From Candidatus Thorarchaeota archaeon (lineage in GTDB: Archaea > Asgardarchaeota > Thorarchaeia > Thorarchaeales > Thorarchaeaceae), in the NCBI GenBank assembly GCA_004524445.1, contig SDNP01000042.1, positions 1 to 18,999 on the forward strand: DNA of 18,999 bases, in the 5' to 3' direction. The position numbers were made by a program, and so were the translations under genes. Below the pieces are notes generated by a model. The model was not told the origin of the DNA. It was given only the letters and a program-made list of their open reading frames with translations, and made no database searches. Of the stretch, positions 1 through 18,999 are shown one piece after another; the first letter of the stretch is position 1; every line of letters starts with the position of its first letter.

Positions 1-775
1 CTTTTCACACCCCGTCCCTCGCCCGAAGGCTGCGGACTTGTTGGTTTCCCTTCGTTTTCGGCTTGACGCCTTATCCTCGCCACGTACATGAACTCCCTGG
101 CCCGTGTTTCAAGACGGATGATGCTGATTTGATCCGCTCTGGTCCTACTACAGGATCCCTCCTGATTCGTTCTCAGAGCATCTTCTCTTTTCATCAGCAT
201 CCTTTGTTTAAACTGCTGGTTTCAGGTGCTTTTCACCCCGCTTCCGCGGCACTTTTCAACTTTCGCTCGCGCTACATAGTCTACTATCGGTTTGGTTGAA
301 TATTTAGGCTTCCCAGATTGCGGCTGGGACGTTCACACGAGATGTCCAACCCATGCTACTCGGGATCCTGAACCATGCCCGCAGTTTACGCCTACGGGGG
401 TATCACCCTCTCTGCCGCGTCGTTCCAGACGACTTTGGCTTCGATGCGTCGGCATGTAATGTTCAGGCCCTCACACCACATCTCCAAGAACTCTTCGCTC
501 TCGGATTCGGTTTGGCCTTTTTCCCTTTCTTTCGCCAGTACTCGGGAAATCTCTAGTTGATTTCTGTTCCTGCCCGTACTAAGATGCTTCAATTCCGAGC
601 GTTCCCCTTCCAGATTTGACCCTGGAATCATGCAGGGTATTAACCCACATGTGGAAGTCCTATTCGGGTTCCTACGGATCAACGGCTTCATGCGCCTACC
701 CGTAGAATATCGCAGCTTGTCGCGCCCTTCATCAGTTAACCAACCAAGTCATCCACCAGCAGCTGTACAGCATTT
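1..775 (-). rRNA. rrl: 23S rRNA, 5' portion (domains I-II); continues beyond window start; exact 5' end approximate
   Basis: The reverse complement carries conserved archaeal LSU motifs: GGTGGATGACTTGG...GATGAAGGGCGCGACAAGCTGCGATA, GAATTGAAGCATCTTAGTAC..GCAGGAACAGAAATCAA, ACCGATAGTAGAC...GAAAGTTGAAAAG, CCGTCTTGAAACACGGGCCAGGGAG. The 5' end is placed about 20 nt upstream of GGTGGATG (757-750). Confidence 0.97.
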
Positions 776-1110
776 GCAGTTCTAGTCATGCAGCCGGCAA
801 CGTAGTACCCGTTGCGCAGCTGACGCTGAACAGCCAAGGATTGTAATAACCTAATCTAATTTAGTTTGGAATTTGTATCGAGTTTTCATACACTACAGTG
901 TATATGATCTGCCTTCATCCTTTGCAATCTCCACATCTCGCCTCTTTTACCTGAAATAGTCAGGGGTGCACGGCACCAAGGGGATGTATCGACGGTCCTC
1001 CACCAGGAATGACTCCGTGATTACGTCTGGTCCCGATGGTCGTTCAACCAGCGAAAACATGCTGGAATCGGACCAAACACACGCCATGAGGCATCACAGC
1101 TGTGTGCGCT
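776..1110 (-). other. Structured pre-23S leader (external transcribed spacer)
   Basis: Non-coding stretch between the TATA box and the mature 23S. Visible stems: CAGCCGGCAACG/CGTTGCGCAGCTG (~791-822), and TGGTCCCGAT/ATCGGACCA (~1028-1075) enclosing CCAGC/GCTGG. Minus-strand TGCACC...GATGAAGG motifs resemble archaeal pre-23S spacers. Confidence 0.65.
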
Positions 1111-1132
1111 CCGCGAGCCAATTGCGCTCGCG

Positions 1133-1146
1133 ATTTAAAGCTTGCT
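1133..1146 (-). promoter_or_regulatory. Archaeal BRE/TATA promoter for the 23S rRNA transcript
   Basis: Minus strand reads AGCAAG-CTTTAAAT, a purine-rich BRE-like element followed by a TTTAAA box, immediately upstream of the structured leader. Confidence 0.6.
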
Positions 1147-1355
1147 ATACATCGAGGTTCATAGAACGGTGTCACAATGACCTTTCGAGAGCCATCGCAT
1201 AAGACCGCCTCTACTCAATGAGAGCATATTTATCCTCCAGTTGTTTGAAGATAAGTATTACGCTCAAGCCGCATCTAACTAACAGATAGGTTAGTGCTAT
1301 GTGTGCCTCTGCACATGAGAAAGACCAAAAGGTACCGCGCGAAAAGAAGATGTGA

Positions 1356-3164
1356 TTGGGGCATAGGTTCGTGCAAATCTCAAAGCGCTGTATGTCTGCA
1401 TTCATGCTGAGCTGGATAATGTTATCTCTAAATTCTGCTGTGATATTGGCAGGAACACCTATTGGCGACATACATAGAGGACCATTTGTTGATAAAGTCG
1501 AATTCCGAGTCATCGAGAACCAGATGCAACAAGTTGAGGCACTATTAGATGGTAGGATTGACATCATCGGAAACAATCTGGAATCAGTTTTTGGGCGAGA
1601 ATTGAGCGCTAATGATGATATTGAAGCAGAACAGATTTTTCTTGGGCGTTTAGACTATTTGGTCATAAACTGCCAGAAGTATCCCTACAACATCACCGCC
1701 TTTCGAAAGGCAGTGGCTCTAGCAATGGACAAACGTAGAGTATGTGAGGAGGCTTGGGAGGGGTTTGCCATACCTCATGATTCCGTCATTCCATATACAA
1801 ATTCATGGTCTATAGAGAATGAAACGGAGAATTCGTACTATGAAGGCGAACAGCAGGAGGCGGCAGCTCTCCTAGATGGGGCGGGATTTCTCGATATTGA
1901 TGATGACGGATTTCGAGAGGCCCCGGATGGAACTGAGTTGAAAATATCCATTGAACGGGAGTTCTCTATGCAGGATACGGATCCAGGAGACCTCATCGCA
2001 CAAGACCTCCAAGAGATAGGACTTGATGCCCATGCGTATGGGCCTTACTACTATCCTAATCCTCCTTGGTCGCTTGAATACATGGATTATGATATGGCAT
2101 GGTTAAGACAATCAGAGTCGGGTGTTGAGCCAAGCTGGTGGGCGAATCATCTACACTCGTCACGCATTGGGCGCACACCTGGCAACTGGCCAAGATTCAA
2201 CAGCACAGACATTGATGCACTAGCAGATACCATTGTGAATTCGTCCAACCCGGATGATGTCTTGTCCGCATGCCAAGAGATGCAGTCTATTTTGTTAGAA
2301 GAATGCCCAGTAATTCCCTGCTATATGCCATGTAAACTCCAAGCATACAGAGATGACAGACTTGCTGGGATTACGGCAAGCCGGAGTGAGGGGATTATTG
2401 GCTGGTGGAGCAGCTATAAAGGGCATCTCACAGAAGCAGCGGGTGGCCCGTTAGGAGGGACCATAACATGGGCAATTCAATCAGGATTTGAAACATTTAA
2501 CATCATGGAAGTCACCAACAAGATAGAAAAGCTCGTTCTTGGTCATATGTACGATAGTCTGTTTAGATTGGGACCATCAGGGGGCATGATTCCTTGGCTT
2601 GTGGATTCGTTTAATGTTACAACACACCAAGATTATGCTTCAGTGCCGGAGGGTCATTTACGATTCACTCTTGATATACTTGAAAATGCCACATGGAGTG
2701 ATGGGGAGCCAATCACAGCAGATGATGTGTCCTTCACTCTACAACAATTCATGCCTCAAGAAATGACTACCTATTGGGGTGACCTCTCAAATCTTTTCTC
2801 TACATTCTCACTCACTAGCCGTAGAGTAGCCGTAGAGTTCAATACTACATCATACCTCCATCTGACGGATTTTGCTTTCATCCCGATTCTGCCTAGCCAT
2901 GCATTTCAGGATATGAACCGTGAAGAATGGAGCGAGTGGAGTCCAGACCCAACATCAATGGTGACTTCCGGGCCGTTCAACGTAAGCATGGTGGAGGAGC
3001 ATAATAGGATTATCATGGAAAAAAGGCCGGACTACTTCTATTGGCATGGTATTGAAACGGAGGGTGAAGGAATTAGTATTCTTCCATTTCATCTAGCAAT
3101 TGCCGCATCTTTGGTTGCCACTGGAATAGTTGTTATGGAGATTTTACGTAGGCGCATGAAATGA
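1356..3164 (+). CDS. ABC transporter solute-binding protein, family 5 (OppA/DppA-like), with signal peptide and C-terminal membrane anchor; circularly permuted domain order
   Basis: Family motifs ATWSDGEPITADDVSFT, YDSLFRL..G.MIPWL, TSGPF, FRKAVALAMDK, LLDGAGF and ILLEECPVIP. Hydrophobic N-terminus and a C-terminal TM helix followed by RRRMK. The true start may be ATG 1392. Confidence 0.9.
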   Translation: MGHRFVQISKRCMSAFMLSWIMLSLNSAVILAGTPIGDIHRGPFVDKVEFRVIENQMQQVEALLDGRIDIIGNNLESVFGRELSANDDIEAEQIFLGRLDYLVINCQKYPYNITAFRKAVALAMDKRRVCEEAWEGFAIPHDSVIPYTNSWSIENETENSYYEGEQQEAAALLDGAGFLDIDDDGFREAPDGTELKISIEREFSMQDTDPGDLIAQDLQEIGLDAHAYGPYYYPNPPWSLEYMDYDMAWLRQSESGVEPSWWANHLHSSRIGRTPGNWPRFNSTDIDALADTIVNSSNPDDVLSACQEMQSILLEECPVIPCYMPCKLQAYRDDRLAGITASRSEGIIGWWSSYKGHLTEAAGGPLGGTITWAIQSGFETFNIMEVTNKIEKLVLGHMYDSLFRLGPSGGMIPWLVDSFNVTTHQDYASVPEGHLRFTLDILENATWSDGEPITADDVSFTLQQFMPQEMTTYWGDLSNLFSTFSLTSRRVAVEFNTTSYLHLTDFAFIPILPSHAFQDMNREEWSEWSPDPTSMVTSGPFNVSMVEEHNRIIMEKRPDYFYWHGIETEGEGISILPFHLAIAASLVATGIVVMEILRRRMK

Positions 3165-3187
3165 TGAAATGAATGCGTACATATGAG

Positions 3188-3889
3188 CTAATGCCAAGAG
3201 GCGAGCTGTATTTCTATAAGATCTTGAATCCCCTTCTGAGCCAGCTCCAGCATGTCATCCAGGACAGCCCGGTCGAAGGTTGAGTGTTCACCAGTACCTT
3301 GTAATTCAACAAACTCGTCATCAAGCATGACAATATTCATGTCAACATCGGCAACTGAATCTTCAGCATAGCAAAGGTCTAGGAGAGGGTCCCCGTCCAC
3401 AACGCCTACGCTAATTGCAGCCAAGTTGCCATTCAAAGGCATGTCCGGAATCATATTCATATCTACCATGTAATGCAGTGCATCAACGAGTGCAACATAA
3501 CCCCCCGTAACAGATGCAGTTCGAGTACCACCGTCAGCCTGAATCACATCACAGTCTATCCGAATCTGGTGTTCTCCTAACCTAACCATGTCCACTGCAG
3601 CACGCAAAGACCTGCCAATCATACGTTGTATCTCCCTTGCCCGGCCGCTATGCCGAAATCGATTCGTTCGTTCATCAGTTGCTCGAGGAAGCATTGCATA
3701 CTCTGCAGTAACCCACCCCGTTCCACGTCCATTTAGCCAATTCGGAACGCGCTCTTCAACTGTTGCAGCACATATCACCTTTGTTTCTCCAGTAGTTATC
3801 AGAACAGAACCCTCCGGATACTTGAGATAGTCACGTTGGATGGTAACTGGCCGCAATTCGTCATTCTTTCTGCCATCGATGCGAGTCAA
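3188..3889 (-). CDS. rph: Ribonuclease PH (bacterial type)
   Basis: Motifs R.DGR..DELRPV, EGSVLI..GETKVIC, GWVTAEYAMLPRAT, EIQRMIGRSLRA, DCDVIQADGGTRTASVTG, DLCYAEDS.ADVDMN and VELQGTGE. TTG start with GAGGA upstream. Confidence 0.95.
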   Translation of the reverse strand: MTRIDGRKNDELRPVTIQRDYLKYPEGSVLITTGETKVICAATVEERVPNWLNGRGTGWVTAEYAMLPRATDERTNRFRHSGRAREIQRMIGRSLRAAVDMVRLGEHQIRIDCDVIQADGGTRTASVTGGYVALVDALHYMVDMNMIPDMPLNGNLAAISVGVVDGDPLLDLCYAEDSVADVDMNIVMLDDEFVELQGTGEHSTFDRAVLDDMLELAQKGIQDLIEIQLASWH

Positions 3890-4046
3890 TCTGTTGTCCT
3901 CAAAAACACACAGAGATTCCCCTATTAATCACTGTCGGATGCCGTTAGGAACTTCAATCATGGATACACAGGGCAAAGCCATATTATTGTGAGAGTATAT
4001 AGTGGTCTCGAGCAGTCCTCAGCTCGTTAGGATGTGTACTTAGGCC

Positions 4047-5072
4047 GTGATGGATGTACGTCGGAAATTTGAACAGTCCTTGCAAGATACTGTCGAAGAG
4101 TGGAAATCACGCGAAGAAGTTAGAGGAATTTTCGTGTATGGGTCCTATGTTCGCGGTACAGCAACAATGAGCTCCGATTTAGATGTTGTTATTATTTGGA
4201 ATGAGGACGAAGCTCCCGCCAGACTAATCGCACGTCATAAAGGAGTGCTCATAGATATGGATTTTATGACACCAGAGGGCATAGAGGTTATTCTTGAAGA
4301 TGAAGCCACTGATGCATTCGAGGTTGCCGGCGTGATTAGCAGGCTACGTGGTGCGCGGATTGAATATGACCCAGACAAACTATTGGTTGATTGGCTGAGT
4401 CGTGTGGAAGATTATACCTGGCCAGAGGAAATGATAGACAGAGTAAAGGAACGTATTCTTGAATCATTGAGCTATGCGAAAAAGTTCTTAGAAAAAGGAG
4501 ACGCGGCCAGCGCTAACTATGCTATGCGTTTAGGTATTCTCAGGCTAGCTAGGTTGGTCCTAATGCGGAACAATAATTTCTCGATTATCAAACCAGCAGA
4601 AGTCCTCTCAGAATTGAGAATGCTGGACCCAGTTTCATACCAGCTCTTTCTACGATCCTTTAAGCTCAAAGGCGTCAGTGAAAATCAGCTTATGATAATT
4701 CTTGATGACATAAAGAAGTGGCTTATTGAGGCTGTGGAGAGATTTGAAAGGGAAGACAGGACAGAAGAAGAGGTTATCAATCTGCTTACTCAGGCTCAGC
4801 GGTATTACTATGGTGCCAACGGGCTAACCATAAATGGCGACTATGAATTAGCAGTGTTGGAAATCAGAAGATGCATTCCTATGATTGGAATGGCCCTGCT
4901 CAGACTCTCTGAAATACCGTTAGAACGAGAAGATGCACTTCTGAAATCTCTCAAAGAAAACGAGAAGGAATTCTATGAGGAGATTATTATGGAATACGGA
5001 GGCTATGACATGCAGCCCAAGGGTATTGAGAGAGCAATTGGTGAGGCAACATTCCTTGTAAACAGATTGTGA
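4047..5072 (+). CDS. Pol-beta-superfamily (MNT-like) nucleotidyltransferase fused to two HEPN-like helical domains
   Basis: N-terminal GIFVYGSYVRG....SSDLDVVII plus a third Asp in IDMDF. Two helical repeats (LSYAKKFLEKGDAASANYAMRLG; AQRYYYGANGLTINGDYELAVLEIRR) resemble HEPN N-termini. The NTase call is solid; the HEPN call is inferred. Confidence 0.75.
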   Translation: MMDVRRKFEQSLQDTVEEWKSREEVRGIFVYGSYVRGTATMSSDLDVVIIWNEDEAPARLIARHKGVLIDMDFMTPEGIEVILEDEATDAFEVAGVISRLRGARIEYDPDKLLVDWLSRVEDYTWPEEMIDRVKERILESLSYAKKFLEKGDAASANYAMRLGILRLARLVLMRNNNFSIIKPAEVLSELRMLDPVSYQLFLRSFKLKGVSENQLMIILDDIKKWLIEAVERFEREDRTEEEVINLLTQAQRYYYGANGLTINGDYELAVLEIRRCIPMIGMALLRLSEIPLEREDALLKSLKENEKEFYEEIIMEYGGYDMQPKGIERAIGEATFLVNRL

Positions 5073-5145
5073 ATAGAATTCAAAAGAAATTTCTCCAAGA
5101 ACTAAATTGATTAAGAATATTCTAACTGATTGGTGTGTGAATTAC

Positions 5146-5682
5146 ATGTCTGACGCGGAGATTGAAGTAGTAGGACTATCTACTGTTCCACTCACTCGGC
5201 AGAAGCAGGACATTATCGATGCCGAACTCGAAAAATATGCCAGCGCAACCAATTACATAATTTTGGCACTCTTTGGCAAGTCTCCCAGTGAACAGCAAAA
5301 AAGTATCGAAGCACTAAGAGATAAGTTCTATGAAAAATTTGATGCTCGTCCTGAGTACCTTGACAATATACTAGCAACTGCCCGTCTTGAGATTCAAAGA
5401 CATAAAGCACAAGCCAGATATATCCGAAACCTGCGGGACAAAGTGCCATCTTTTGAAGAGGGAGAGTTGAGGTTATCTGCGCCACTAGTTAAAGTGGGCC
5501 GGAAGGCCATTGTCCTTAAGACGGCAGAAGACGAGGTCCCCTTGCCATTTGACAAATACAGCCGCAATAAGAATGCTCAAGTTCTTGAAGAGATTCGAAG
5601 TGGAAGAACTGCATTTCAGAGGGTGCGATTCCAATGGAACAAAGAAGGGTATTTTGATGTTGATATCCGGTTAAAGCAATAG
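5146..5682 (+). CDS. Hypothetical protein resembling the N-terminal WED/REC lobe of TnpB (IS200/IS605 OrfB)/Cas12f, lacking RuvC
   Basis: ATG 5146 preceded by GGTG (ORF open from 5107). Residue pattern: strand, PLT..K, helix ELEKY..A.N, three helices, K.P.F, strands LRL/VKV/IVLKT/VPLP, then terminal strands VRFQW..GYFDVDIRL. The CDS is well supported; the family call is pattern recognition. Confidence 0.6.
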   Translation: MSDAEIEVVGLSTVPLTRQKQDIIDAELEKYASATNYIILALFGKSPSEQQKSIEALRDKFYEKFDARPEYLDNILATARLEIQRHKAQARYIRNLRDKVPSFEEGELRLSAPLVKVGRKAIVLKTAEDEVPLPFDKYSRNKNAQVLEEIRSGRTAFQRVRFQWNKEGYFDVDIRLKQ

Positions 5683-5697
5683 GGAATATGCTTGTCA

Positions 5698-6585
5698 TCA
5701 AAGGTCGATTTTCCAAGATATTAGAGAACCTGTAAAATCAGTTGTGTATAGGTTATTCCCGGATGGGTGCCAAACTACAGAAGATATTCCATTCCTACAT
5801 GTACTGGAGGAAATCAGTTCACCTGAGTCCATGTCCCATATTCGCAAAGTTCTATCCCAACTACCCGATGCCAAGTACCGGTTCGTCGGATTTATTGAGA
5901 GACAACTCACAAAATCGGTATGCTCATTGAGCTCTGTCCTGTTTCTTGCGTTCTCTAATGATACTGAACGAATGTTTCCAGACTGTAGTCCTACATAGGC
6001 TCGGTCGGTAGCAGTATCCAATGCAAGAGAGCGAACCCTTTCTTTCTGTCTTAGAAGGTTCTTGACGAATCCATAACCGCTCATATCCCAGAGTTTCACG
6101 CCCCCATCATAAGAAGCACTTACCAGATATGACCCGTCATCTGTCAGAGCAATGCCAGATATATCCTTCTGGTGAGTAGGTAAATTTCTAAGGCACTTCA
6201 TGTTCTTGAGTGAAAATATCTTAACCAACCCGTCTCTTGTTCCAATAGCCCCCTTTCCAACATCCTCCTGTACACTAAGCTCCTTAAAATCTGAGTTATG
6301 ACTAACCATATTCGGACTGGCTGTTCCCTTTGAACAGCTCCACACTCGTGCCGTTTGATCCCAACTAGAAGTCAAGAGTCGCGAGCCATTCTTTATGAAT
6401 TGCAGGCCAGATATGATTCCTTCATGCCCGTTGAGAATACGCTGTGGTTTTTCCTTTTTTGCATCAATAAGAATAATTTCAGCATCTACTGTTCCACAGG
6501 CCATTCGTTTGCCCTTGGAGTCGATAGCAATGGCTGTCAGAGCAGAATTGTTTCCTGAGGTTTTGAATAGGATACTGGGCTCCAA
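5698..6585 (-). CDS. WD40-repeat protein, single 7-bladed beta-propeller
   Basis: Seven repeats countable, e.g. GHEGIISGLQF...LLTSSWDQTARVWS, THQKDISGIAL...LVSASYDGGVKLWD, EHTDFVSCLSI...LASGSWDRTLRIWD. TTG start with GGTGTGA upstream. Confidence 0.95.
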   Translation of the reverse strand: MEPSILFKTSGNNSALTAIAIDSKGKRMACGTVDAEIILIDAKKEKPQRILNGHEGIISGLQFIKNGSRLLTSSWDQTARVWSCSKGTASPNMVSHNSDFKELSVQEDVGKGAIGTRDGLVKIFSLKNMKCLRNLPTHQKDISGIALTDDGSYLVSASYDGGVKLWDMSGYGFVKNLLRQKERVRSLALDTATDRAYVGLQSGNIRSVSLENARNRTELNEHTDFVSCLSINPTNRYLASGSWDRTLRIWDMDSGELISSSTCRNGISSVVWHPSGNNLYTTDFTGSLISWKIDL

Positions 6586-6650
6586 GCTATCACACCACTA
6601 AGGCTCTTTCATTATGGTTAATGTATCAAAATGATAAAAGTCTGTGTGGT

Positions 6651-7649
6651 TCATCTACGTCGGTACAGAATGATAGTCATAGCGGCTATGACTGGAACGA
6701 CGATGACAACCAGCCATTCGACCTGGATGGGAGGTTCAGGTAGGAAACTTGTGATTCCTGTTTGTTGTTCGTGCAGGAAGCTCTCTAGAACACTGCCCAC
6801 TGCCTCAAGGCTGTCGCCACTACATTTGTCCGGCGTATCCTCTCGAGTGTGCCAATACCAAGGGAAGGGATAATGAATAAGATCGACTGCTGGAATTCCA
6901 GCATCAATAAATGGCCTATGGTCATCAATGATGGAACCGCCAGCTGTATCAAGAAACACGTCACTATATCCTAGGGTGTCGGCTTTTTCCCAAATGCGAT
7001 TCTGCAACGAATCTGTTGAGAACCTTTCTCGAGGGATACGCAATGATTCGTCACCCACCATATCAGCCAAAATCATACCACGAATGGCGGTTCTCTCCTG
7101 TTCACTTAGCAAATCTACGTACTTGCTCGATCCAACAATCCAGTCCCATCCATTTATTTCTCCTGAATCTTCAGCATCAAAAAAGACGAACTCAACGATG
7201 GATCGGGTCTTCTCGGGAAGCGAATTTGCAAGTTCTAAGAGAACAGCCACACCACTAGCTCCGTCATTAGCACCTAGGACAGGCAGAGTGCGATTCTCTA
7301 TGGCGGGATCTTGGTCCGCAAGTGGGCGGGTATCATAATGGGCACCGAGAACGAATCGGGATTGGTTCGGATTCTGGCTTTTTGCGATGATATTGACACA
7401 TTTCGTATCACGATAGGTGAAATTCTGTAGTTCAACAACCCAACCTGATGACTCGATTTGATCCGTGATATATTCACGACATTTGCTCAGATTGTCAGAG
7501 CCCGGAGGGCGTGGACCAAAGGAACACTGGGCTTCTAGATATTCAAATGCAGAGTTGCCGTCGAAGATAGGCTCATAGGAGGTTTGGTTCGATATAGGAC
7601 GGGGATTAAGGGTGATCAAGAGTAGAATAAAGATGAAATATCTATGCAT
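6651..7649 (-). CDS. M28-family zinc peptidase / glutaminyl-peptide cyclotransferase-like protein, secreted and C-terminally membrane anchored
   Basis: Motifs FGPRPPGS, GAHYDTR, GANDGASGVAVLLELA, FFDAEDSG, DMVGD, IDDHRPF and WHTREDT. Signal peptide; C-terminal TM helix followed by YRRR. Confidence 0.88.
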   Translation of the reverse strand: MHRYFIFILLLITLNPRPISNQTSYEPIFDGNSAFEYLEAQCSFGPRPPGSDNLSKCREYITDQIESSGWVVELQNFTYRDTKCVNIIAKSQNPNQSRFVLGAHYDTRPLADQDPAIENRTLPVLGANDGASGVAVLLELANSLPEKTRSIVEFVFFDAEDSGEINGWDWIVGSSKYVDLLSEQERTAIRGMILADMVGDESLRIPRERFSTDSLQNRIWEKADTLGYSDVFLDTAGGSIIDDHRPFIDAGIPAVDLIHYPFPWYWHTREDTPDKCSGDSLEAVGSVLESFLHEQQTGITSFLPEPPIQVEWLVVIVVPVIAAMTIILYRRR

Positions 7650-7693
7650 CTTCTGCGACCAAGTTCAGTGAGTCATGACAACCTAAGAATCTT

Positions 7694-8920
7694 TCACTTT
7701 TGGGAACTGATACGTGAACGTACCATCTTTTGAATAACGGACGGAAGCTCTGAGGGGAGTTCTCGTAGGATAATGAGAGGTAGGTCAACATATCCAATAT
7801 CTCCACGTGCTAAGCCCGCCAGAATTTTATGGGAAATTTCGTGACCTTCTGCTTTCTTCAAAAGCCACTCAGCAAATGATGTGCCTCGTAGTCCGAACCA
7901 TTCAGCTACTTGAAAATTACCCCTGAATTCTTGCCTGCACGAGTCGTGGTATTTCATCAGGTGCTTCGCGGATGCCCATTCTTTTTCTCTACACTCTTGT
8001 ATTGTGTTAACGGCAAGTACAGCAGACCGCATTGCATATGCTATACCCTCCCCCATTAGAGGATCAACGAATCCAGCAGCATCTCCAACCAACACGGCCC
8101 GTTTGCATACATTGGGCCCAAGCACGCCTCGTCCCCCTAAGAAGTATGTGTAGCGTTTGTCTATGGGAAGGTCGATTCCGAGGTGACTTTCCATTCGCGT
8201 GTGGAAGCGGTTGAAAATCGGTCGCAAGGGATGCATGTGGGCACTTGCTCCTGCTACACCTATTGCTAGGTGATCCTTCTTTGCGAATACCCATCCATAG
8301 CTGAGCCTGTTTTTTACCGGGATTATCTGCAACACTTCTGGGCGTCCATTCATAGCCTCCATAACGGCTTCTTCCCCAACATGAACATGAGTTTCCATTC
8401 CTAATCCAATGCTATGGGGTTCCCTCCTCTTTGGACGAAGTCCCAATGATCTACTCACTATCGAATTGACTCCATCTGCTCCGATGAGATAGGACCCTTT
8501 GAATTCTCGACCGTTTCTTAATCTGACAGTAGCGCATTCTTCATCAGCACAAGCAGCCACAACCTCCGCCTCTTCAAGAAGGGTTGCTCCCCTTGACTCC
8601 GCGCGTCGAGCCAAGAATTCATCGAATTTGCTTCGAAATACAGTAATCCCAAGTTTCTCCTTGGACACAAACTCTGCCTCTTCGGAGTCAGGAAAAACGA
8701 ACTTCAAGCCGAATATTTTTCTCTCCATTATTCTTGGAGGAATTCTTTCATCAATCACGTTTAACGCACGCTGCATAACAGCTCCGCCGCATGGTTTGAT
8801 TCTAGGTAGAGAATGTTTTTCCAAGAGAAGAGTATCTAGTCCTGCCATAGCTGCTTGGTACGCTGCCGTTGCCCCCGCGGGTCCTGCTCCAACAATAATG
8901 ACATCATACTTCATTACCAT
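7694..8920 (-). CDS. Geranylgeranyl reductase family FAD-dependent oxidoreductase
   Basis: YDVIIVGAGPAGATAA Rossmann motif, PRIKPCGG, R..FDEFL, IGADGVNS, YGWVF and LVGDAAGFVDPLMGEGIAYA. Start is likely ATG 8920 or 8914 (ORF open to 8956). Confidence 0.9.
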   Translation of the reverse strand: MVMKYDVIIVGAGPAGATAAYQAAMAGLDTLLLEKHSLPRIKPCGGAVMQRALNVIDERIPPRIMERKIFGLKFVFPDSEEAEFVSKEKLGITVFRSKFDEFLARRAESRGATLLEEAEVVAACADEECATVRLRNGREFKGSYLIGADGVNSIVSRSLGLRPKRREPHSIGLGMETHVHVGEEAVMEAMNGRPEVLQIIPVKNRLSYGWVFAKKDHLAIGVAGASAHMHPLRPIFNRFHTRMESHLGIDLPIDKRYTYFLGGRGVLGPNVCKRAVLVGDAAGFVDPLMGEGIAYAMRSAVLAVNTIQECREKEWASAKHLMKYHDSCRQEFRGNFQVAEWFGLRGTSFAEWLLKKAEGHEISHKILAGLARGDIGYVDLPLIILRELPSELPSVIQKMVRSRISSQK

Positions 8921-9056
8921 TATTGAATCCCACATTAAGGAATAGGTTCCAACCACTCCACGATTTGAGAACGCTGTTCTCTAGTTTCAGCATTCGTATT
9001 TGGATTTAATTAATACTATCCTAGCAAGCATATATACAAAAATCGATGAGTGTGTT

Positions 9057-9644
9057 TCATATATCGCGGCAATCTTCACAGCCTTGGCGATTAATTAAGC
9101 CCAAACGGCGCATGATTTTCCCGCCTGGTTGTTCAGGAGCAGGTCCCCCAGGAGGTGTTTCGGTGGGGATGTCCCTCCTGCCCACCTCTTTGAATCCATA
9201 AGCCTGAACGAGCATCAATGAGGGGGTGTTTTCCTCATATATCTCTGTATAGACTTCTTCAACCCCCGCATCGATGAAGTATTCCGACGATTTGCGAATC
9301 AGAGCTGTTGCAACACCGCGACGTCTACGACTGGGTGCCACCCCGAGGCCTGTTATTTCACCATAAATGGATTCCTCTTCCTTCTCAACAAAGCAAGCGA
9401 TGAATCCAACAAGAGAGCCCCACATCTCTGCCACAAAGATACCTTCGGTTTCCATCTTCTGGGCATCCTCTTCAGTCAGTGGGCAAAAGGGGTCAGGAGA
9501 GGCAAGAAATGCGCGATTGTACAAATCGACAAACTCACTCATTTCTTCAGGCTTCAAAGCTCGCACACGAACATACTTCGGAATCTCCTTTTCATCCCAC
9601 CATTCTTCTGCTAATTCTAGAGCCTCTTCTGCATCTGCTTTCAT
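9057..9644 (-). CDS. GNAT family N-acetyltransferase with Pro-rich tail and terminal CxxC
   Basis: Acetyl-CoA motif LGVAPSRRRRGVATALI and motif B N.PSL.L....GF. Start uncertain (ATG 9644; ORF open to 9731). Confidence 0.85.
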   Translation of the reverse strand: MKADAEEALELAEEWWDEKEIPKYVRVRALKPEEMSEFVDLYNRAFLASPDPFCPLTEEDAQKMETEGIFVAEMWGSLVGFIACFVEKEEESIYGEITGLGVAPSRRRRGVATALIRKSSEYFIDAGVEEVYTEIYEENTPSLMLVQAYGFKEVGRRDIPTETPPGGPAPEQPGGKIMRRLGLINRQGCEDCRDI

Positions 9645-9740
9645 GATAAGGTATGATTTTGTTCCCATCTGCTGAGATGAATCTGCTTTGCCTGATGGCA
9701 ATATTAGTCCCCACTCCCATTTGCGGTGCACTTAGCAAGC

Positions 9741-10502
9741 TCAACTGTATAGTTTATCAATGGCGCTTATGGTAGCCTCTATCTCTTTTTCTACCGCCTC
9801 AATCATAAGGGGATTCTGTTCGCCTGTTTCTTCTGTTTCATCTTCCTGTTCTCCTTTTTGACCGGTGTGCAGGTTACCATCACAGGCGAGAATGGAAGCG
9901 GCTTCCAATCCTTTGGTCTGAGCGAACACATAGAGCATCGAACTCTCCATCTCGACACATTTCACCCTAGCCTTGGTCCAAATGTCCAACTGGTTATTGG
10001 CTTCACCCACATAATAGACATCGCTGGTCCAGCAAATGCCCGAATGAACCCGATCGTGTGGCAACAATTTCTTGATTTCATCATACAATGCGGCGTAGAG
10101 CTCCGGTGTAGCAACAGCTGGATATTCCATGGGAGCATAATTTAGACTTGTACGTTCATCACGGATACAGGCAGTCGGTACCACCACATCACCCGTTTGT
10201 ACAGCCAAGCTGATTCCTCCACAGGATCCTACCCTGATGAATGTCTTTGCGCCAACATTGGCAAATTCTTCCACGCAAATATGGGTAGAGGGCGTTCCAA
10301 TACCAGTGCCCGATATATTCAGTGGCACGCCTTTTGGTGTATATGCCCTATACGTGACAAAACCCCGATAACGAGCCACTTCTTCTGCATCTTTCATCTT
10401 TGCTGCGATTTTGGGAACTCTATCCGGATTGCCTGCGATAAGAACAATTTCCTCTACATCATCCTCTCCAACTCGCAAATGAGGTTGAACTCTCTTTTTC
10501 AT
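9741..10502 (-). CDS. Uridine/purine nucleoside phosphorylase (PNP_UDP_1 family)
   Basis: Motifs QPHL, GNPDRV, TGIGTPS, FIRVGSCGG, RDERTS..Y.P..YPAVA, SDVYY and VEMESS. ATG 10502 preceded by GGTGG. Confidence 0.92.
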   Translation of the reverse strand: MKKRVQPHLRVGEDDVEEIVLIAGNPDRVPKIAAKMKDAEEVARYRGFVTYRAYTPKGVPLNISGTGIGTPSTHICVEEFANVGAKTFIRVGSCGGISLAVQTGDVVVPTACIRDERTSLNYAPMEYPAVATPELYAALYDEIKKLLPHDRVHSGICWTSDVYYVGEANNQLDIWTKARVKCVEMESSMLYVFAQTKGLEAASILACDGNLHTGQKGEQEDETEETGEQNPLMIEAVEKEIEATISAIDKLYS

Positions 10503-10598
10503 AATATCCACCGTAACCAGAAGGTCGAATTCGGTATGACATGTCTTTTTGCATGCTGCTTGATAATATCTTTGATGGTCGTCGAAAAACAGCATTAT

Positions 10599-10787
10599 TT
10601 AGCGGGACTCTATTCGTTTCAAAATGCATTCAACGCATACCTTGTCATCAGCTATCTGGAACACTTTGCCAAACTGAGGGTGTGAACATCCGCAGCTTTC
10701 ACATGGGCCTACTTCATGCTCGTAATTTTCCGTCAGGAAAACTATCAGTAACGAAAGCAGTTTGGTTGAATCCGCTGACACCTGCAA
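10599..10787 (-). CDS. Putative small zinc-finger protein (CxxC-x18-CxxC); start uncertain
   Basis: GPCESCG...KVCVEC in an otherwise empty gap between genes, co-oriented with the downstream phosphorylase. Confidence 0.5.
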   Translation of the reverse strand: MQVSADSTKLLSLLIVFLTENYEHEVGPCESCGCSHPQFGKVFQIADDKVCVECILKRIESR

Positions 10788-10929
10788 TCTTGGTCAACAT
10801 CCATTAATATGGTTCATCAGTGCACCTTATTATCTCATTGGAATTCATTTCATGGAGTCCAACAAGATCTTTTTGAACAGGCAGAGGTATCCATAACAGG
10901 CTGAAAAGCATGGTTAACCAAGGATTGTA

Positions 10930-11304
10930 ATGGTGAATTTCACATACTATTGCTATTTATGTGTAAAAAAGAATTCTTTGGAACTCCCTGCACCTGGAGC
11001 ACCCGAGAATCATCACGCAGACTTGAAGTGTGAGAAGTGCGGAAACAACACACACGTCCTGACATCTTCCTATCCGGGTGAAGAGTGCAATCGCTATCTA
11101 TACTGGATTAATGTCAGCTCCGTCCCTAGCCTAGTAACAGGATTTGCAGAATACATGGTACAGAACATGCAGAAACTAATCGACTCAGCGGCTGAACAGT
11201 GTGTGAAGATTGGAATTAATACCCCAAATACATTTCTAATTCATGCCAAGCGCCGATGTGGACCTGAATTGACGGTAGAGATAGAAGTATGTGATTCATA
11301 CTAG
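10930..11304 (+). CDS. Cys-rich hypothetical protein (zinc-ribbon-like), possibly degenerate
   Basis: YYCYLC and KCEKCG knuckles plus half-motifs YPGEEC and RRCG. The only substantial ORF in this gap. Confidence 0.7.
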   Translation: MVNFTYYCYLCVKKNSLELPAPGAPENHHADLKCEKCGNNTHVLTSSYPGEECNRYLYWINVSSVPSLVTGFAEYMVQNMQKLIDSAAEQCVKIGINTPNTFLIHAKRRCGPELTVEIEVCDSY

Positions 11305-11338
11305 TCGGATGCTCATCTTACATGCATCGACACAGAAC

Positions 11339-12643
11339 TCAACATAGATAATGAAACAGGTAGCTTTCTCTCTTCGGGAACAGGGCTTCAATTAGGTCTT
11401 CATATTGTTTTTCAATGACAAAATCAGCATCAAATTCGCTGAGTTCATGAAGTCCATTTGCCCCCAAGAGTAAACGAGTAAATTTGCTTGGTGGTGCTCG
11501 TAGCATGCCCCCATGTCCTATCATCGGTTTTGGACTTGTTTTGATTTTGACAATTTTTCCATCTTGGAATATCAATGTATAGAGGGCGAGATAGGTGTTG
11601 ATTTCAACATCCAAATTTAGACGCTGATATGGGGTTCCTATGAGCCGTTCTTCTAATGCCTTTCGGACACGCCAAAGAAAACGCTCCGGACAGGGTATCA
11701 GAATCTGATATTTCCAACCCCGTGTCATTTTCCCACCTAGGGAAAGAGCTAACTTGCTCGGATGTGATTCAGTCGTTCCGGGAAGATAAACTTCCTGAAT
11801 CTTATTCCTCAGACCTTGTTCTTGTAGATAGTGTAGCAAGGCAAGCGTACAGCGATAATTGGGAGTCACTGCCTCAAATACGGTGAGTGTTTTCTTCTTA
11901 ATCATTCCATTGGGTGCCTTAGGTATGGTTTCGCGAAAGTATCCACAGACTTCACCACCCTTTTCGATTACTTTTGTATGAAATTTCTCAGATTCATACA
12001 TACTGGTTTCTTCTTGAGTTAGCCACAATTCCTTGCTTCTCTCAGCAGCAACCAGGAGTTTGGCTACAGTTTCTCGGTACAACCGGAGAAGACAGTCTAG
12101 GTCCCTTTTCTCTGCCAACCTTATGGTATATGCATCTTCGTAATCCACCTCTTTTTGCTTAGGAGGCAGCTGATCTGGTCTGATACTCACCCGACGATTC
12201 AATGGAAGCATGAAATCGTATCCGTATTTTCGATAAAAGAAAGGAATGCCCTGAATTGCTGAAATTTCATACTCACCTTTGTGAAGCGCGATGTTGAAGA
12301 GCTTGTAGAGCGCATGAAAGAGACCTTGTTTCCTGTAAGCCTCACGTGTACCCACAAACCCCAATTCCAAATTTCTGATTTCTATTCCTTCATAGCTCCA
12401 AGTGCTGGGGATTGCATTCAGGCACGCGACCATCTCTCCTGTGTCGAGGTCACGTAAGTAGAAGTTGCTTTCAAGCCCAAATCCAGGATAATGCTCAATT
12501 AACCGCTCCAGCATTAAGGCATCAGTTTCATCATGAATGGCCCTATTGAGTTCAACAAGCTCTCGATGTTCTTCAGGAGTCTCTACACATCCGTATACAA
12601 AACCGTCAGGAGGCAGGGGCCAATCATTTCTATTCGACATCAA
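11339..12643 (-). CDS. Eis-like tandem-GNAT acetyltransferase with probable SCP2-like C-terminal domain
   Basis: VGTREAYRKQGL (acetyl-CoA motif), IQGIPFFYRKYGY, a second GNAT start TIRLAEKRDL..L..LY, and C-terminal LLLG...L.EL...LIEALFPK. Confidence 0.85.
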   Translation of the reverse strand: MMSNRNDWPLPPDGFVYGCVETPEEHRELVELNRAIHDETDALMLERLIEHYPGFGLESNFYLRDLDTGEMVACLNAIPSTWSYEGIEIRNLELGFVGTREAYRKQGLFHALYKLFNIALHKGEYEISAIQGIPFFYRKYGYDFMLPLNRRVSIRPDQLPPKQKEVDYEDAYTIRLAEKRDLDCLLRLYRETVAKLLVAAERSKELWLTQEETSMYESEKFHTKVIEKGGEVCGYFRETIPKAPNGMIKKKTLTVFEAVTPNYRCTLALLHYLQEQGLRNKIQEVYLPGTTESHPSKLALSLGGKMTRGWKYQILIPCPERFLWRVRKALEERLIGTPYQRLNLDVEINTYLALYTLIFQDGKIVKIKTSPKPMIGHGGMLRAPPSKFTRLLLGANGLHELSEFDADFVIEKQYEDLIEALFPKRESYLFHYLC

Positions 12644-12716
12644 GAATCACATAGCTTCTATTTGTTTGGTACTATTATTGTTAATAGAACGGGTGAAAGA
12701 TGAGGATTTCCTCTTA

Positions 12717-13379
12717 TTATCTGATTCCTCTCTCTGAGAAAAAGGAACAATTCTCTCGCAAAGGGCACTGTTTGCAGTGTGGTTGCTTGTGAAGGCAGAT
12801 TGCAGATACAAAATCTATCACACCCCAGTAGAAGCGTTGGTCATGGTCCGGACCAGCCACATTATCGGCAAATTGCCAAGCCCCTTCATCTTCAGCACCA
12901 TCAAAATCGGTGCCAAAGAGCCGGTTCAAAAAGAAGACAATATTCCCATCAATCAGTGGTTCAGGAATCGAGAATGCAAAGTTTCGTACGGCGCAAGCGG
13001 TGTATCTTCCTACTCCAGGGAGATTCTCCAAATTACTGGAAGCTGACTTTACACTTCCATTATACCTCTCAACAAGGATAGCTGCTGTTCTTTGTAGATG
13101 TTTAGCACGGACGGATTGCAGCCCAAGAGGCGTAATGAGGGATTCAACCTTACGCCTACTGAGATTCATGAGGGCTTCAGGGGTTCCGGCAACTTTGAGA
13201 AGCGAGGGGTAAACCCGCATGACGGCTGCGGCAGTAGTTCTTCTGAGTAACATCTCTGCCACAAGAACATGAAATGGGTCGTCATCGTATCTCCAAGGAA
13301 AATCTCGGCCGTGCTCTTCGAACCATTCGATTATGGTTTCTTTTACTCTTTTGTAAAAATTGGATTTTTGGTTCAACAC
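12717..13379 (-). CDS. HhH-GPD DNA glycosylase with [4Fe-4S] cluster, MIG-like (T:G/U:G mismatch) rather than MutY
   Basis: RDFPWR, LVAEMLLRRT, HhH LPGVGRYTA, catalytic Asp in IDGN, and FCL motif C-x6-C-x2-C-x5-C (CLHKQPHCKQCPLRENC). No MutT-like C-terminal domain. Confidence 0.85.
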   Translation of the reverse strand: MLNQKSNFYKRVKETIIEWFEEHGRDFPWRYDDDPFHVLVAEMLLRRTTAAAVMRVYPSLLKVAGTPEALMNLSRRKVESLITPLGLQSVRAKHLQRTAAILVERYNGSVKSASSNLENLPGVGRYTACAVRNFAFSIPEPLIDGNIVFFLNRLFGTDFDGAEDEGAWQFADNVAGPDHDQRFYWGVIDFVSAICLHKQPHCKQCPLRENCSFFSERGIR

Positions 13380-13391
13380 CCATTCAATCTC

Positions 13392-13955
13392 CTATTGCAG
13401 CCCAATCAGTTCCTTTGCTTTCTGAAGGATTTTCTTTGGGTCATTGATTACACATGTGTCTTGAAAATTCCGAATAATATCGACATTATCAACATCTACC
13501 TTACGTGGTCTAATTCTTATGATGCGCCCACCGGGATCTATGGTATCTATGTTACCTAGGACTTGGTCTACTGGAAACAGGATGATAGGAGTATAGCCCC
13601 CCTTCAATGTTTGAGCTACTGCATTAGTGACCAGGGTGTCTGCAATTCCATGGGCTATTTTTGCGGCAGAGTTTGCAGTGAGGGGAGCTACAATCAATAG
13701 GTCATAATGCCCAACCTGGAGGGGTCCTGCAACAAAGGGATTGTTAGCGCTTTTTTCAACCATGACGTCATTAAATACCTCATGGATACGTTCAGTAAGA
13801 CCGTACCACTGAATAACCTCGACTCCGGCTAGTGATATTATACATGAAACGTCCATAGATTCAATTTCATTAAGAACTGCTGCGACTTCCAAAATCTCCT
13901 TTAGCTTATCTCCTGAGCCAGTGATTGCCCAAAGAATCCGTTTCATCTCACTCAC
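13392..13955 (-). CDS. afpA: Archaeoflavoprotein AfpA (FMN-binding flavoprotein family)
   Basis: Motifs WAITGSGDKL, ANNPFVAGPLQVGHYD, APLTANSAAKIAHGIADTLVTNAV and RKVDVDNV are typical of AfpA. Confidence 0.85.
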   Translation of the reverse strand: MSEMKRILWAITGSGDKLKEILEVAAVLNEIESMDVSCIISLAGVEVIQWYGLTERIHEVFNDVMVEKSANNPFVAGPLQVGHYDLLIVAPLTANSAAKIAHGIADTLVTNAVAQTLKGGYTPIILFPVDQVLGNIDTIDPGGRIIRIRPRKVDVDNVDIIRNFQDTCVINDPKKILQKAKELIGLQ

Positions 13956-14042
13956 GAAATAGTACGAATGACCACAAATATCTAACTAAACCTATGCAAG
14001 CCTTCATTTGGAAGTAGTGGAATTTCAATCCGAGGGAAGAAT

Positions 14043-15020
14043 TTGTACAAGCTCAGCATCGGGATGACTACCAATATGAAGACATCAGCCACGCAATGGT
14101 TGGCAGGGAATGCCGATAGATTGGGAGCGCACCGCATTTGGATTGGTGAGGACATCGGACTAGGGCAAGACATCTTCGTATTGACAGCGGCAACACTACT
14201 AGAGTCAGATAGAGTACAAGTGGGCACAGGTATCACTCCGATCAGTGTTCACAATCTCACTACTCTCGCAAGGGCAGGCATGACATTGCAGCAGATTTCC
14301 AATGACAGATTCATATTTGGCACAGGGATTGGAGGGCTTCAGGACCTTGAGAGACGCGGAATTGAAATCGAGAAACCCGTGACCGTGTTACGAGAGGGCG
14401 TGAAAGCCTTGAGGAAACTATGGAACGGCGAAAAAGTGACGGTCAGTAACGAGCTGTTTGATATTCAAGGCTATTCGTTGAGGTCGTCGAATAACTTGAA
14501 TATACCCATCTTTCTCGGGGTTAGAGGACCTCAGATGCTCAGACTGGCAGGGAAGATTGCAGACGGAGTTATTCTATCAGGACCCATAGACTATCTTCAA
14601 TATGCAATAGAAAGGGTGAATAAAGCTGCCAAAGATAATGGAAGAAGGCCCGATGAGATAGAGAAGTTGGTCTGGTTGCCAACGATTCCTACATTCAAGG
14701 GAGGGAATGAGAAGCTGGCCAAAAGAGTTGTAGCAGTGGTAGCAGCAGATATGCCCCAGACGGTTCTGGACATGCTCAGTATTGATAGAGAAAAACTGGA
14801 CGCATTGGTAAATGCAGTCGCCTCATCAGGTGCCCAAGATGCAACAGAGTATGTTGACGAAGAAATTATGAATATGTTTGCAATCACCGGAACCAAGGCA
14901 CAAATGATTGAGATTTTTTCCTCCATTGCAAAGCTTGGAGCCAACGAAATTCTTGTGGGACCGCCATTCTCCGGAAACTGGAGAACTGCACTTGAAGAAA
15001 TATTCGCTGAAATCGAATGA
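14043..15020 (+). CDS. Luciferase-like (LLM) Mer-related oxidoreductase, probably F420-dependent
   Basis: Motifs VGTGI, LARAGMTLQQISNDRFIFGTGIG, IPIFLGVRGPQMLRLAGKIADGVIL and LGANEILVGPPF. Confidence 0.88.
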   Translation: MYKLSIGMTTNMKTSATQWLAGNADRLGAHRIWIGEDIGLGQDIFVLTAATLLESDRVQVGTGITPISVHNLTTLARAGMTLQQISNDRFIFGTGIGGLQDLERRGIEIEKPVTVLREGVKALRKLWNGEKVTVSNELFDIQGYSLRSSNNLNIPIFLGVRGPQMLRLAGKIADGVILSGPIDYLQYAIERVNKAAKDNGRRPDEIEKLVWLPTIPTFKGGNEKLAKRVVAVVAADMPQTVLDMLSIDREKLDALVNAVASSGAQDATEYVDEEIMNMFAITGTKAQMIEIFSSIAKLGANEILVGPPFSGNWRTALEEIFAEIE

Positions 15021-15033
15021 GGGGTATTCTTCC

Positions 15034-15951
15034 ATGAAGTGGGGTCTCGCTGTTGGTGTGCGACAAAATCTGGATGAAGTCCTGAGGGTTAGTGAAATAG
15101 CGTATCACGGGGGGATAGATCAAATATGGGTCGTGGATTTTCCGGCATCACAGCTAGCTTCGGTTGCTGCAACAATGCTTGCCAAATACGTACCTATGAG
15201 GTTGGGCATAGGATTGCTCTCTCCGCTGCTGTACTCTCCCCAACAAATGATAAGAATGATTCAATCTATCAGAGATAATTATGATATCGAAACCGACATA
15301 ATGGTGGGCAGTGGAGATCCGCTTTGGCTTTCGAGGGTCGGCCTTGAATATTCTTCTGGCCTAGTAGCAGTTAGAGCGGTCAGGGATGAAGTCATTGAAA
15401 TCATGGAATTGCTGAAGAAGAATGAACTCGCATCTCAGCTGCTATTGGCAGCACAAGGACCGAAGATGATTTCAATCGCACGACTGGGTGACGGTGTGTT
15501 GCTCAATTATTCTGACCCTACTATGATTCAGTGGGCAGTAAAACAAATGGGGACAATGCCAGAAGGCTATGTCAAGGGGGTCTTTCCACCCACAGCATTA
15601 GCTGACAAGACATACAGATTGCCAGAGTATGCGAAGAATGCGGCAGCTATTGTTGCATTGGGAACTAGTTCCAAGGTGTTAAAGAGATTCGGGCTTCTCG
15701 CTGAACTGAGTGGCCCAAAAAATGACTTAAACGAAAAAGGAGAATTAACAGCTGAAATTGTGAATTCTATTCCGGAGGAAATATTGAGTCGGTTCATCCT
15801 CCACTGTACACCCGATGACTTGAATGAGTATGTTTCATCCTTGGTCTCTATGGGAATTGATTTGATAGTGTTTGGACCCCCTTTGTCCAGCTTGGAACAG
15901 GGTGTAGAAATGCTGGTTAGTGCAAAGCAGAAATATAGTGAAGGCCAATGA
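15034..15951 (+). CDS. Second, more divergent LLM/Mer-like oxidoreductase
   Basis: ATG 15034 after GAGGGG, 13 nt after the previous stop. Motifs GIDQIWVVD, LGIGLLSP, LAAQGPKMISIA..GDGVLLN and GIDLIVFGPPL. Confidence 0.82.
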   Translation: MKWGLAVGVRQNLDEVLRVSEIAYHGGIDQIWVVDFPASQLASVAATMLAKYVPMRLGIGLLSPLLYSPQQMIRMIQSIRDNYDIETDIMVGSGDPLWLSRVGLEYSSGLVAVRAVRDEVIEIMELLKKNELASQLLLAAQGPKMISIARLGDGVLLNYSDPTMIQWAVKQMGTMPEGYVKGVFPPTALADKTYRLPEYAKNAAAIVALGTSSKVLKRFGLLAELSGPKNDLNEKGELTAEIVNSIPEEILSRFILHCTPDDLNEYVSSLVSMGIDLIVFGPPLSSLEQGVEMLVSAKQKYSEGQ

Positions 15952-15959
15952 TTCTGCTA

Positions 15960-17384: not shown

Positions 17385-17465
17385 TTCAGGGACTTCCTAC
17401 TTCTGGACGAGTATAGATGACTCATGCTTCCTCGTCGTCAAAGCTCTTTAAGCTTAAGGGGTGGT

Positions 17466-18515: not shown

Positions 18516-18542
18516 GTTGGTCACCCTGAAGACATAAGTGCA

Positions 18543-18610
18543 ATTGTACAATATTAAGGATTGTCCAAAAGTTTAGATGTTTCCCTTGTCAAATGTCCGG
18601 TTTGTAGAAA
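18543..18610. promoter_or_regulatory. Divergent promoter region with TATA-like box and repeated TTGT-NN-AA motifs
   Basis: Minus-strand TTAATA at ~18558-18553. Palindrome ATTGTACAAT at 18543-18552. TTGTACAA (18544), TTGTCCAA (18561), TTGTCAAA (18586), TTGTAGAA (18602). Confidence 0.4.
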
Positions 18611-18765
18611 ATTTCTCCGCGGATTTTGAGTAGCTCCGCTGCAAAGGGGCAGAACAGGCAGAAAGCCTCTCAGAGTGACGTCCATTCACCCAGTTTCTCT
18701 TATTATGTGGTCTGGACCTACAGGTGCTTGTGATCACTGAAGTGCCAATAGACTGGCACAACCAG

Positions 18766-18820
18766 CACTGGAAACAGAGTAGGCGCCTACCCTATTTCAG
18801 TGAAAACTGCACTCTGTTTC
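18766..18820. repeat. Three copies of a 10-bp motif forming overlapping inverted repeats
   Basis: GAAACAGAGT (18771-18780), ACCCTATTTC (18789-18798, reverse complement GAAATAGGGT) and ACTCTGTTTC (18811-18820, exact reverse complement of the first). Confidence 0.7.
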
Positions 18821-18847
18821 TAACGCAACCACCAAACAACCATACTA

Positions 18848-18999
18848 GTGAAAAGAGATTCGGAGGTGAAAAGAATTAGCAAAGACCGGATGAGGGCCAT
18901 CTATGAGCGCATGACAAAGGATCGTGCAGCCCTCGAATTACTGTCAATTGGCATAGTTAGTGGCATTGCCACAGTAGTGCAGCCGCCTTGTGAGGATCC
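18848..18999 (+). CDS. 5' part of an ORF running off the window (unknown product); start could be 18848, 18866, 18875 or 18890
   Basis: Frame open from 18824 to the end: (V)KRDSEVKRISKDRMRAIYERMTKDRAALELLSIGIVSGIATVVQPPCED. Strong Shine-Dalgarno GGAGGTGA at 18862-18869. Confidence 0.55.
   Translation, partial: MKRDSEVKRISKDRMRAIYERMTKDRAALELLSIGIVSGIATVVQPPCED

Follow-up and report, generated by a model that had tools for sequence, protein, structure and literature searches.

Can the recognition lobe of a TnpB-type nuclease be kept by its host as a gene in its own right, without the nuclease half? The question is raised by a 178-aa gene (5146..5682, forward strand) in an 18,999-nt stretch of DNA from Candidatus Thorarchaeota archaeon (GenBank assembly GCA_004524445.1, contig SDNP01000042.1, positions 1 to 18,999; hereafter, the window), for which inspection of the sequence alone had suggested a domesticated WED/REC module of TnpB or Cas12f. 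Following up this original prediction computationally, we favour, as probable rather than certain, the reading that the gene is functional and encodes a domesticated TnpB/Cas12 recognition lobe, which lacks the nuclease half and serves as a non-catalytic nucleic-acid binder. The reading builds on the demonstrated fold, domain boundary, distribution, purifying selection and lost mobility of the gene.

Predicted structure of the 178-aa protein

The gene (product P0001) was characterized by its reading frame and translation, its AlphaFold2 model, its fold matches and its dN/dS. The frame (5146-5679, followed by a TAG stop codon at 5680-5682) comprises 178 codons and is intact, and an SD-like GGTG (5132-5135, forward strand) lies 11-14 nt ahead of the ATG, in keeping with the proposal of an intact ORF with its own ribosome-binding site. 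A GTGGTG-like word is found at comparable spacing ahead of the start codon in most orthologous loci.

The AlphaFold2 model, built from an alignment of 25 family members (A1), has a pLDDT of 93.4 and a pTM of 0.87. Its elements are, in order, a strand (residues 7-13), helices 18-42, 47-64 and 69-90, a basic loop, strands 107-111, 115-117, 121-125 and 130-135, a helix (137-152) and a hairpin of two final strands (157-164 and 170-176), and every secondary-structure element that had been named from the sequence agrees with it. On the forward strand of the window, WED strand β1 (residues ~1-13, with model strand 7-13, corresponding to WED residues 1-12 of TnpB) spans 5146..5184; the REC helical bundle and basic linker (residues ~14-100), which lie between WED β1 and β2, span 5185..5445; and the predicted β-barrel strands 2-7 of the WED domain with their flanking helix (residues ~101-178, the C-terminal end) span 5446..5679.

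Structural comparisons pointed to a single group of proteins. The best 50 Foldseek matches in the PDB were all Cas12f, TnpB or other Cas12-type proteins (best E value 1.9e-6, TM up to 0.66; ISDra2 TnpB at E 1e-4). VIA-align, run against 48,161 representative chains, placed only Cas12, TnpB and Fanzor proteins at ranks 1-30 (Z 13.1 to 7.3), followed by unrelated folds at Z ≤5.0: model residues 4-178 aligned with residues 0-209 of AsCas12f (Z 13.1 over 170 residues), RhCas12f (9NZP) was matched at Z 13.0 over 167 residues, and model residues 3-178 aligned with residues 1-175 of ISDra2 TnpB, that is, with the whole WED and REC lobe (Z 10.5). The WED/REC fold that had been recognized by eye is thus supported by matches that, above Z 5, are confined to TnpB, Cas12 and Fanzor proteins. 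In ISDra2 TnpB, the WED domain (residues 1-12 and 117-176) is a seven-stranded barrel with one helix, the REC domain (13-116) is inserted after β1 and RuvC begins at residue 185 (PMC10097598). The modelled 178-aa protein has the same arrangement of a WED OB-fold barrel with REC inserted between β1 and β2. Because model residues 3-178 match TnpB residues 1-175, with the published WED end at 176 and the RuvC start at 185, the protein, as modelled, comprises the entire REC lobe and goes no further than the lobe boundary, halting, as had been claimed, just before RuvC-I would begin.

Conservation and charge offer further clues to function. The REC part of the family alignment contains the conserved motifs LTxEKQ, ATNYVI and YLxDVVKTARVEIGRHR; R159 and R161 are invariant and, like K20, R97 and R140, are among the conserved basic positions; and cysteine is absent from most members. 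Most family members are strongly basic (pI 9.2-11, net charge +7 to +16), and this charge, together with the fold, leads us to infer a role as a nucleic-acid binder. The proteins of the host's own genus (P0001, P0002 and P0003) have a pI of 6-9 and a net charge of -1 to +3, compared with +4 to +16 in the rest of the family (at least +7 in all but one); one such charge loss, for example, is the replacement of the conserved K of DVVKTAR by A. This own-genus loss of net positive charge fits poorly with simple electrostatic nucleic-acid binding. Despite it, the own-genus proteins are still under purifying selection.

Single-copy inheritance within one archaeal family

Searches with the A1 profile recovered the gene in 79 of the 85 genomes of the same GTDB family, representing 16 of its 16 genera, and in none of the 315 genomes that represent other families of the phylum; the six family genomes without a match are 65-88% complete. 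There is nearly always one copy per genome. Two matches were found in two genomes, in one case (G029) as gene halves on separate contigs and in the other (G032) as full-length copies, one short and one bearing an insertion. In the protein tree, each genus with more than one member was recovered, with the fewest label changes possible, and the GC and GC3 contents of the gene equal those of its neighbours. Relative to the sister species, dN/dS is 0.17 (0.09 for the neighbouring nucleotidyltransferase, 0.06 for RNase PH and 0.15 for an M28 peptidase). The gene is a vertically inherited, single-copy core gene, without mobility and under purifying selection: typically present once, at a fixed locus, without a transposase in the window, it lacks the mobility of an IS200/IS605 element and shares with TldR genes immobilization, a conserved neighbourhood and purifying selection. 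The presence in 79 of 85 family genomes, the sorting of the tree by genus and a dN/dS below 1 bear out the earlier view that the gene is exapted rather than insertion-sequence debris.

Orthologue length is conserved, as had been anticipated, at 176-257 aa apart from one 377-aa form, and no orthologue has RuvC. The longest protein (P0016; L033, 6001-7134) carries a C-terminal extension of ~180 aa (residues ~195-377) with similar repeated stretches (RPWE...VPRIA...IR), in which neither a RuvC nor a zinc-ribbon (TNB) motif was found by eye. An insertion of 50-60 aa between REC helices 2 and 3 (A1 columns ~85-155) occurs only in genera g7, g8, g10, g15 and g16, the exception within these genera being the second, short copy in G032. 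Larger Cas12 proteins bear REC insertions in the same region.

Genomic neighbourhood

Immediately upstream, and ending 73 nt ahead of the gene, is a 341-aa nucleotidyltransferase (NTase; 4047..5072, forward strand; Pfam NTP_transf_2, E 1.3e-9). Its AlphaFold2 model (pLDDT 91.9) adopts a KNTase/ANT(4')-like fold to which further helical domains are added, with best Foldseek matches to ANT(4'), LinB and, more weakly, HalB; the GS...DLD motif is intact. NTases of this kind were found in families f1 and f2, across the order, with weak partial matches elsewhere in the phylum in three genomes only. Divergent from the NTase is a bacterial-type RNase PH (3188..3889, reverse strand; TIGR01966, E 7.8e-101, 336 bits), which within the sampled phylum is restricted to families f1, f2, f9 and f29, a wider range than that of the 178-aa gene. 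Downstream, a convergent WD40 β-propeller gene (5698..6585, reverse strand; Pfam WD40, E 1e-38) ends 15 nt past the stop codon, exactly as had been described. The remaining window genes are of ordinary cellular kinds and encode an M28 peptidase, an FAD oxidoreductase, GNAT acetyltransferases, a PNP/UDP phosphorylase, an HhH-GPD glycosylase and a flavoprotein. An archaeal LSU rRNA (1-780, reverse strand), represented by its 5' 767 positions, runs past the window edge. Elsewhere, the host genome encodes an ESCRT-II subunit and actin (440 bits), which, together with the source label 'Candidatus Thorarchaeota archaeon' on one orthologue, mark the host as a Thor-type Asgard archaeon.

The original prediction had singled out synteny with both the NTase and the WD40 gene; the first part stood and the second did not. 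The NTase lies upstream in every locus examined, including those of members only 27-31% identical. At 20 loci of relatives the WD40 gene has its full length; it is missing from those of the most divergent members and, in the sister species (L002, 7173-7555, reverse strand; also L003 and L004), is reduced by an internal deletion to residues ~1-81 and 238-295, out of frame, beside an intact 178-aa gene. Deleted in the one case and absent in the other, it is a frequent but dispensable neighbour and no obligate partner. Constancy of the NTase is itself weak evidence of a functional link, because ~10 kb surrounding the gene is collinear among family genomes. In the sister family (one genome), the NTase lies near RNase PH and is followed by a small membrane-protein ORF, the 178-aa gene being absent, so the NTase-RNase PH neighbourhood is older than the gene. 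A complex prediction for the NTase and the 178-aa protein gave a score of 0.00, which is not evidence either way. In one relative (L035), the position directly upstream of the NTase, occupied by RNase PH in the other loci examined, is taken by a 720-aa ORF (738-2900, forward strand) that bears a Cas12f1-like_TNB zinc ribbon, and an ORF of 150 aa intervenes between the NTase and the WED-REC gene.

Between the NTase and the gene, comparison of family loci revealed a conserved 10-nt box (ATTGATTAAG, family consensus ATTGATTAGG; 5106..5115, forward strand). It lies 40-44 nt ahead of the ATG in 20 of the 21 family loci, and also in L035 and L036, being present in L035 although an ORF intervenes between the NTase and the gene; as ATTGATTA(A/G)G, it holds the same position across genera (L004-L022, L035 and L036), the remaining spacer not being conserved. 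This position is where TATA-like words peak ahead of genes in the host genome. We read the box as a transcriptional signal, probably belonging to a promoter or operator of the gene itself. The gene appears to be transcribed from it, with a start predicted ~10-15 nt ahead of the ATG, and the box might also be an autoregulatory site, although it may be a promoter and no more. It contains TTGAT, which is also the TAM of ISDra2, and could be a fossil insertion-site junction. Two other interpretations were rejected. A regulon or general promoter motif is at odds with its 5 copies in the genome (~17 expected by our estimate from base composition), as none of the other four copies is upstream of a gene and three lie inside long ORFs; and the TTG in the box as the true start codon is at odds with its being in frame in some loci only and replaced by TTC in several.

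These observations bear on an alternative to which we assign a small chance, namely that the protein binds RNA and has an accessory role in RNA 3'-end metabolism, where it would present substrates to the NTase, and perhaps to RNase PH, or select them. The gene is always downstream of the NTase on the same strand, even in its most divergent relatives, RNase PH is usually divergent from the NTase, and WED touches RNA stems in both TnpB and TldR (PMC10097598, PMC13622181). The adjacency is nevertheless weakened by the collinearity of the surrounding region and by the greater age of the NTase-RNase PH pair, the gene has its own conserved upstream box, L035 retains the gene with an ORF in between and RNase PH replaced, and the fold of the NTase is closer to the small-molecule ANT/Lin enzymes than to RNA-tailing enzymes.

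Resident TnpB-like genes

Zinc-ribbon (PF07282) matches range from 0 to 43 per genome in the host family. Distinct TnpB-like frames of ~400, 580 and 715-730 aa occur in related genomes in 0-43 copies, and the only clear TnpB-like gene of the host genome is a 594-aa ORF (C8, ~38.1-39.9 kb, reverse strand; L023, 1039-2823) with a PF07282 match at E 3e-14. Given such abundance, and the TAM-groove architecture retained in the lobe, the protein could act as a dominant-negative decoy against resident TnpB or IS200/IS605 elements, competing for TAM sites or ω-RNA. We consider this quite unlikely: 4 of 41 genomes (86-95% complete) retain the gene although none of the four has a PF07282 match at E ≤1e-6; by sequence, the local TnpBs form several very distinct groups, so that different TAMs and RNAs would be required; and a fixed single copy with strict vertical descent is atypical of a conflict factor.

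Absence of the nuclease half

Neither RuvC (PF01385) nor the zinc ribbon (TNB; PF07282) was matched on the contig, and the window ORFs include no transposase, in line with the reported lack of a nearby tnpA. With the convergent WD40 ORF 15 nt past the stop codon, there is, as had been noted, no room for RuvC or a zinc finger. The same 15-nt gap leaves no place for a guide RNA at the 3' end of the gene or beyond it; Rfam gave no match near the gene (only the LSU rRNA at the window edge), and RNAalifold found no pairs, and no conserved RNA structure, in the upstream leader.

What a lone lobe might still do can be judged from its relatives. In TnpB and TldR, the TAM duplex is held in the REC-WED groove, WED and RuvC share the surface on which the guide scaffold lies, and RuvC is also required for the heteroduplex channel (PMC10097598, PMC13622181). 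A lone REC lobe would therefore keep the full duplex-reading groove and only half of the RNA-holding surface. Because the RuvC half of the scaffold anchor is gone and there is no room for a cis-encoded guide, the protein would be expected to act guide-free, and guide-independent binding of duplex DNA or another duplex is the most likely retained activity.

By contrast, a minimal RNA-guided DNA binder, using a guide RNA encoded elsewhere in the genome (in trans), strikes us as very unlikely. Such a role would draw on ancestry in an RNA-guided family and on the part of the heteroduplex channel that is lined by WED and REC (PMC10097598), and would make this 178-aa protein the smallest RNA-guided DNA binder known; however, the channel and the scaffold surface have lost their RuvC contribution, and there is neither adjacent non-coding space nor an Rfam family or conserved structure nearby. 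A less extreme reading of the same architecture is that the TAM-reading groove alone would have given rise to a protein-only, sequence-specific transcription factor in Asgard archaea.

Searches by sequence

A profile and structural comparison with TnpB and Cas12f had been named as the check on the original prediction, and its two parts diverged: the structural match held, whereas no sequence or profile match to TnpB was obtained. Neither the protein nor the 25 members were assigned to a family in searches of Pfam, NCBIfam and PDB sequences, whose only returns (TRCF, DsrC and a ribonuclease at E 0.16) were noise below threshold. Among the 25 family members there was no match to Pfam PF12323 or PF01385; the family profile matched none of the PDB sequences; and when hhalign was used to compare the family alignment with TnpB-like ORFs of related genomes, in four groups, the probabilities were <1%, from alignments that are shallow. 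An exhaustive phmmer search over 1.84 billion cluster representatives yielded 19 proteins, with full-length members of 179-240 aa, apart from one 377-aa form and one spurious repeat protein. Profile searches added only further 'hypothetical protein' entries of nearby length and none among longer proteins (421-2000 aa), the latter result being weak evidence, and searches for related loci with single proteins found the sister genome only and nothing among viral contigs. The homology to TnpB would thus be one without detectable sequence or profile similarity, resting on predicted structure.

This lack of detectable similarity is what one would expect if the protein were no TnpB derivative at all, being instead a stand-alone WED-REC protein of independent or ancestral origin, or a case of fold convergence. 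The chances of this are similarly slim: the discontinuous topology aligns over 160-170 residues at Z 10-13, with nothing else above Z 5, and the 178-aa family is limited to one archaeal family, whereas TnpB is widespread. A search of the ESM Atlas by fold returned, at TM 0.73-0.78, full-length TnpBs together with short clusters of the 'transposase (fragment)' or MJ0013 type (N-terminal TnpB ORFs of 165-223 aa with the same fold), some of which owe the name of transposase fragment to automatic naming; the link to PF27234 (MJ0013, which covers the N-terminal region in archaeal TnpB-like proteins) is a lead given by a language model in this atlas. That such short clusters exist elsewhere might suggest a decaying insertion-sequence remnant without function, a reading with practically no chance given a frame intact in 79 genomes from 16 genera, a dN/dS of 0.17 and a conserved start context and upstream box.

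Comparison with known TnpB derivatives

Compared with IS200/IS605 TnpB (ISDra2; 8H1J, 8EXA), the 178-aa protein has the same WED OB-barrel of seven strands and a helix, with REC after β1, and in both the lobe is without a zinc finger, unlike that of Cas12f. It differs from TnpB in having no RuvC, TNB or C-terminal domain, no ω-RNA region, no transposon context and no detectable sequence similarity, and in being encoded by a single-copy, vertically inherited gene. Cas12f proteins (AsCas12f, 8DZJ; RhCas12f, 9NZP) are the best structural matches, and several of their deposited second-protomer chains are only ~175-200 residues long; unlike Cas12f, the 178-aa gene is accompanied by no CRISPR array, nuclease lobe or zinc finger. 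We therefore call the protein TnpB-derived or TnpB-lobe-like, and not TnpB, because it has the REC-lobe structure and lacks RuvC, TNB, a cis guide, mobility and sequence similarity.

The closest parallels in evolutionary history are TldR and Cas12k/Cas12m, which are likewise immobilized TnpB-lineage proteins in a fixed context, with cleavage lost and binding presumably kept. In these, a RuvC fold persists in degenerate or C-terminally truncated form and a guide RNA is encoded beside the gene, as described for exapted forms in the TnpB census and TldR papers (PMC10691335, PMC13622181); the 178-aa gene has neither a degenerate RuvC nor an adjacent guide RNA. More broadly, the exapted forms in the papers on TnpB exaptation that we consulted (Cas12 effectors, Cas12k/m, TldR and sigma-associated TnpB) keep the RuvC scaffold, even where it is inactive or truncated. 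Within the set of papers searched, there was no RuvC-less or stand-alone REC-lobe TnpB derivative and no paper joining TnpB with Thorarchaeota. Since the RuvC fold is preserved in the TldR and Cas12k/m proteins known so far, a RuvC-less, stand-alone lobe looks like a new form of TnpB exaptation.

Discussion

Under the favoured reading of a domesticated recognition lobe, the gene most likely originated at the root of one Asgard (Thorarchaeota-type) family: with the NTase gene already in place, a TnpB-like gene downstream of it would have lost its nuclease lobe, and the shortened gene would afterwards have been inherited vertically as a single-copy core gene. The protein would comprise a seven-stranded WED OB-barrel and a REC bundle after strand 1, with the RuvC, zinc-ribbon (TNB) and C-terminal parts all gone, and its WED-REC groove would most likely hold dsDNA or another duplex without a guide RNA. 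Such derivatives are missed by sequence-based TnpB searches (the Pfam models and profiles tried here) and are found by structure.

If this reading is true, the recognition lobe alone has long been retained by its host, across 16 genera, and the WED-REC module would therefore have a selectable activity of its own. The family would offer a natural minimal system for what the lobe can do without a nuclease lobe or guide RNA, such as TAM-like duplex reading and RNA stem binding. That the host is an Asgard archaeon adds interest, because descendants of TnpB, the Fanzors, also entered eukaryotes.
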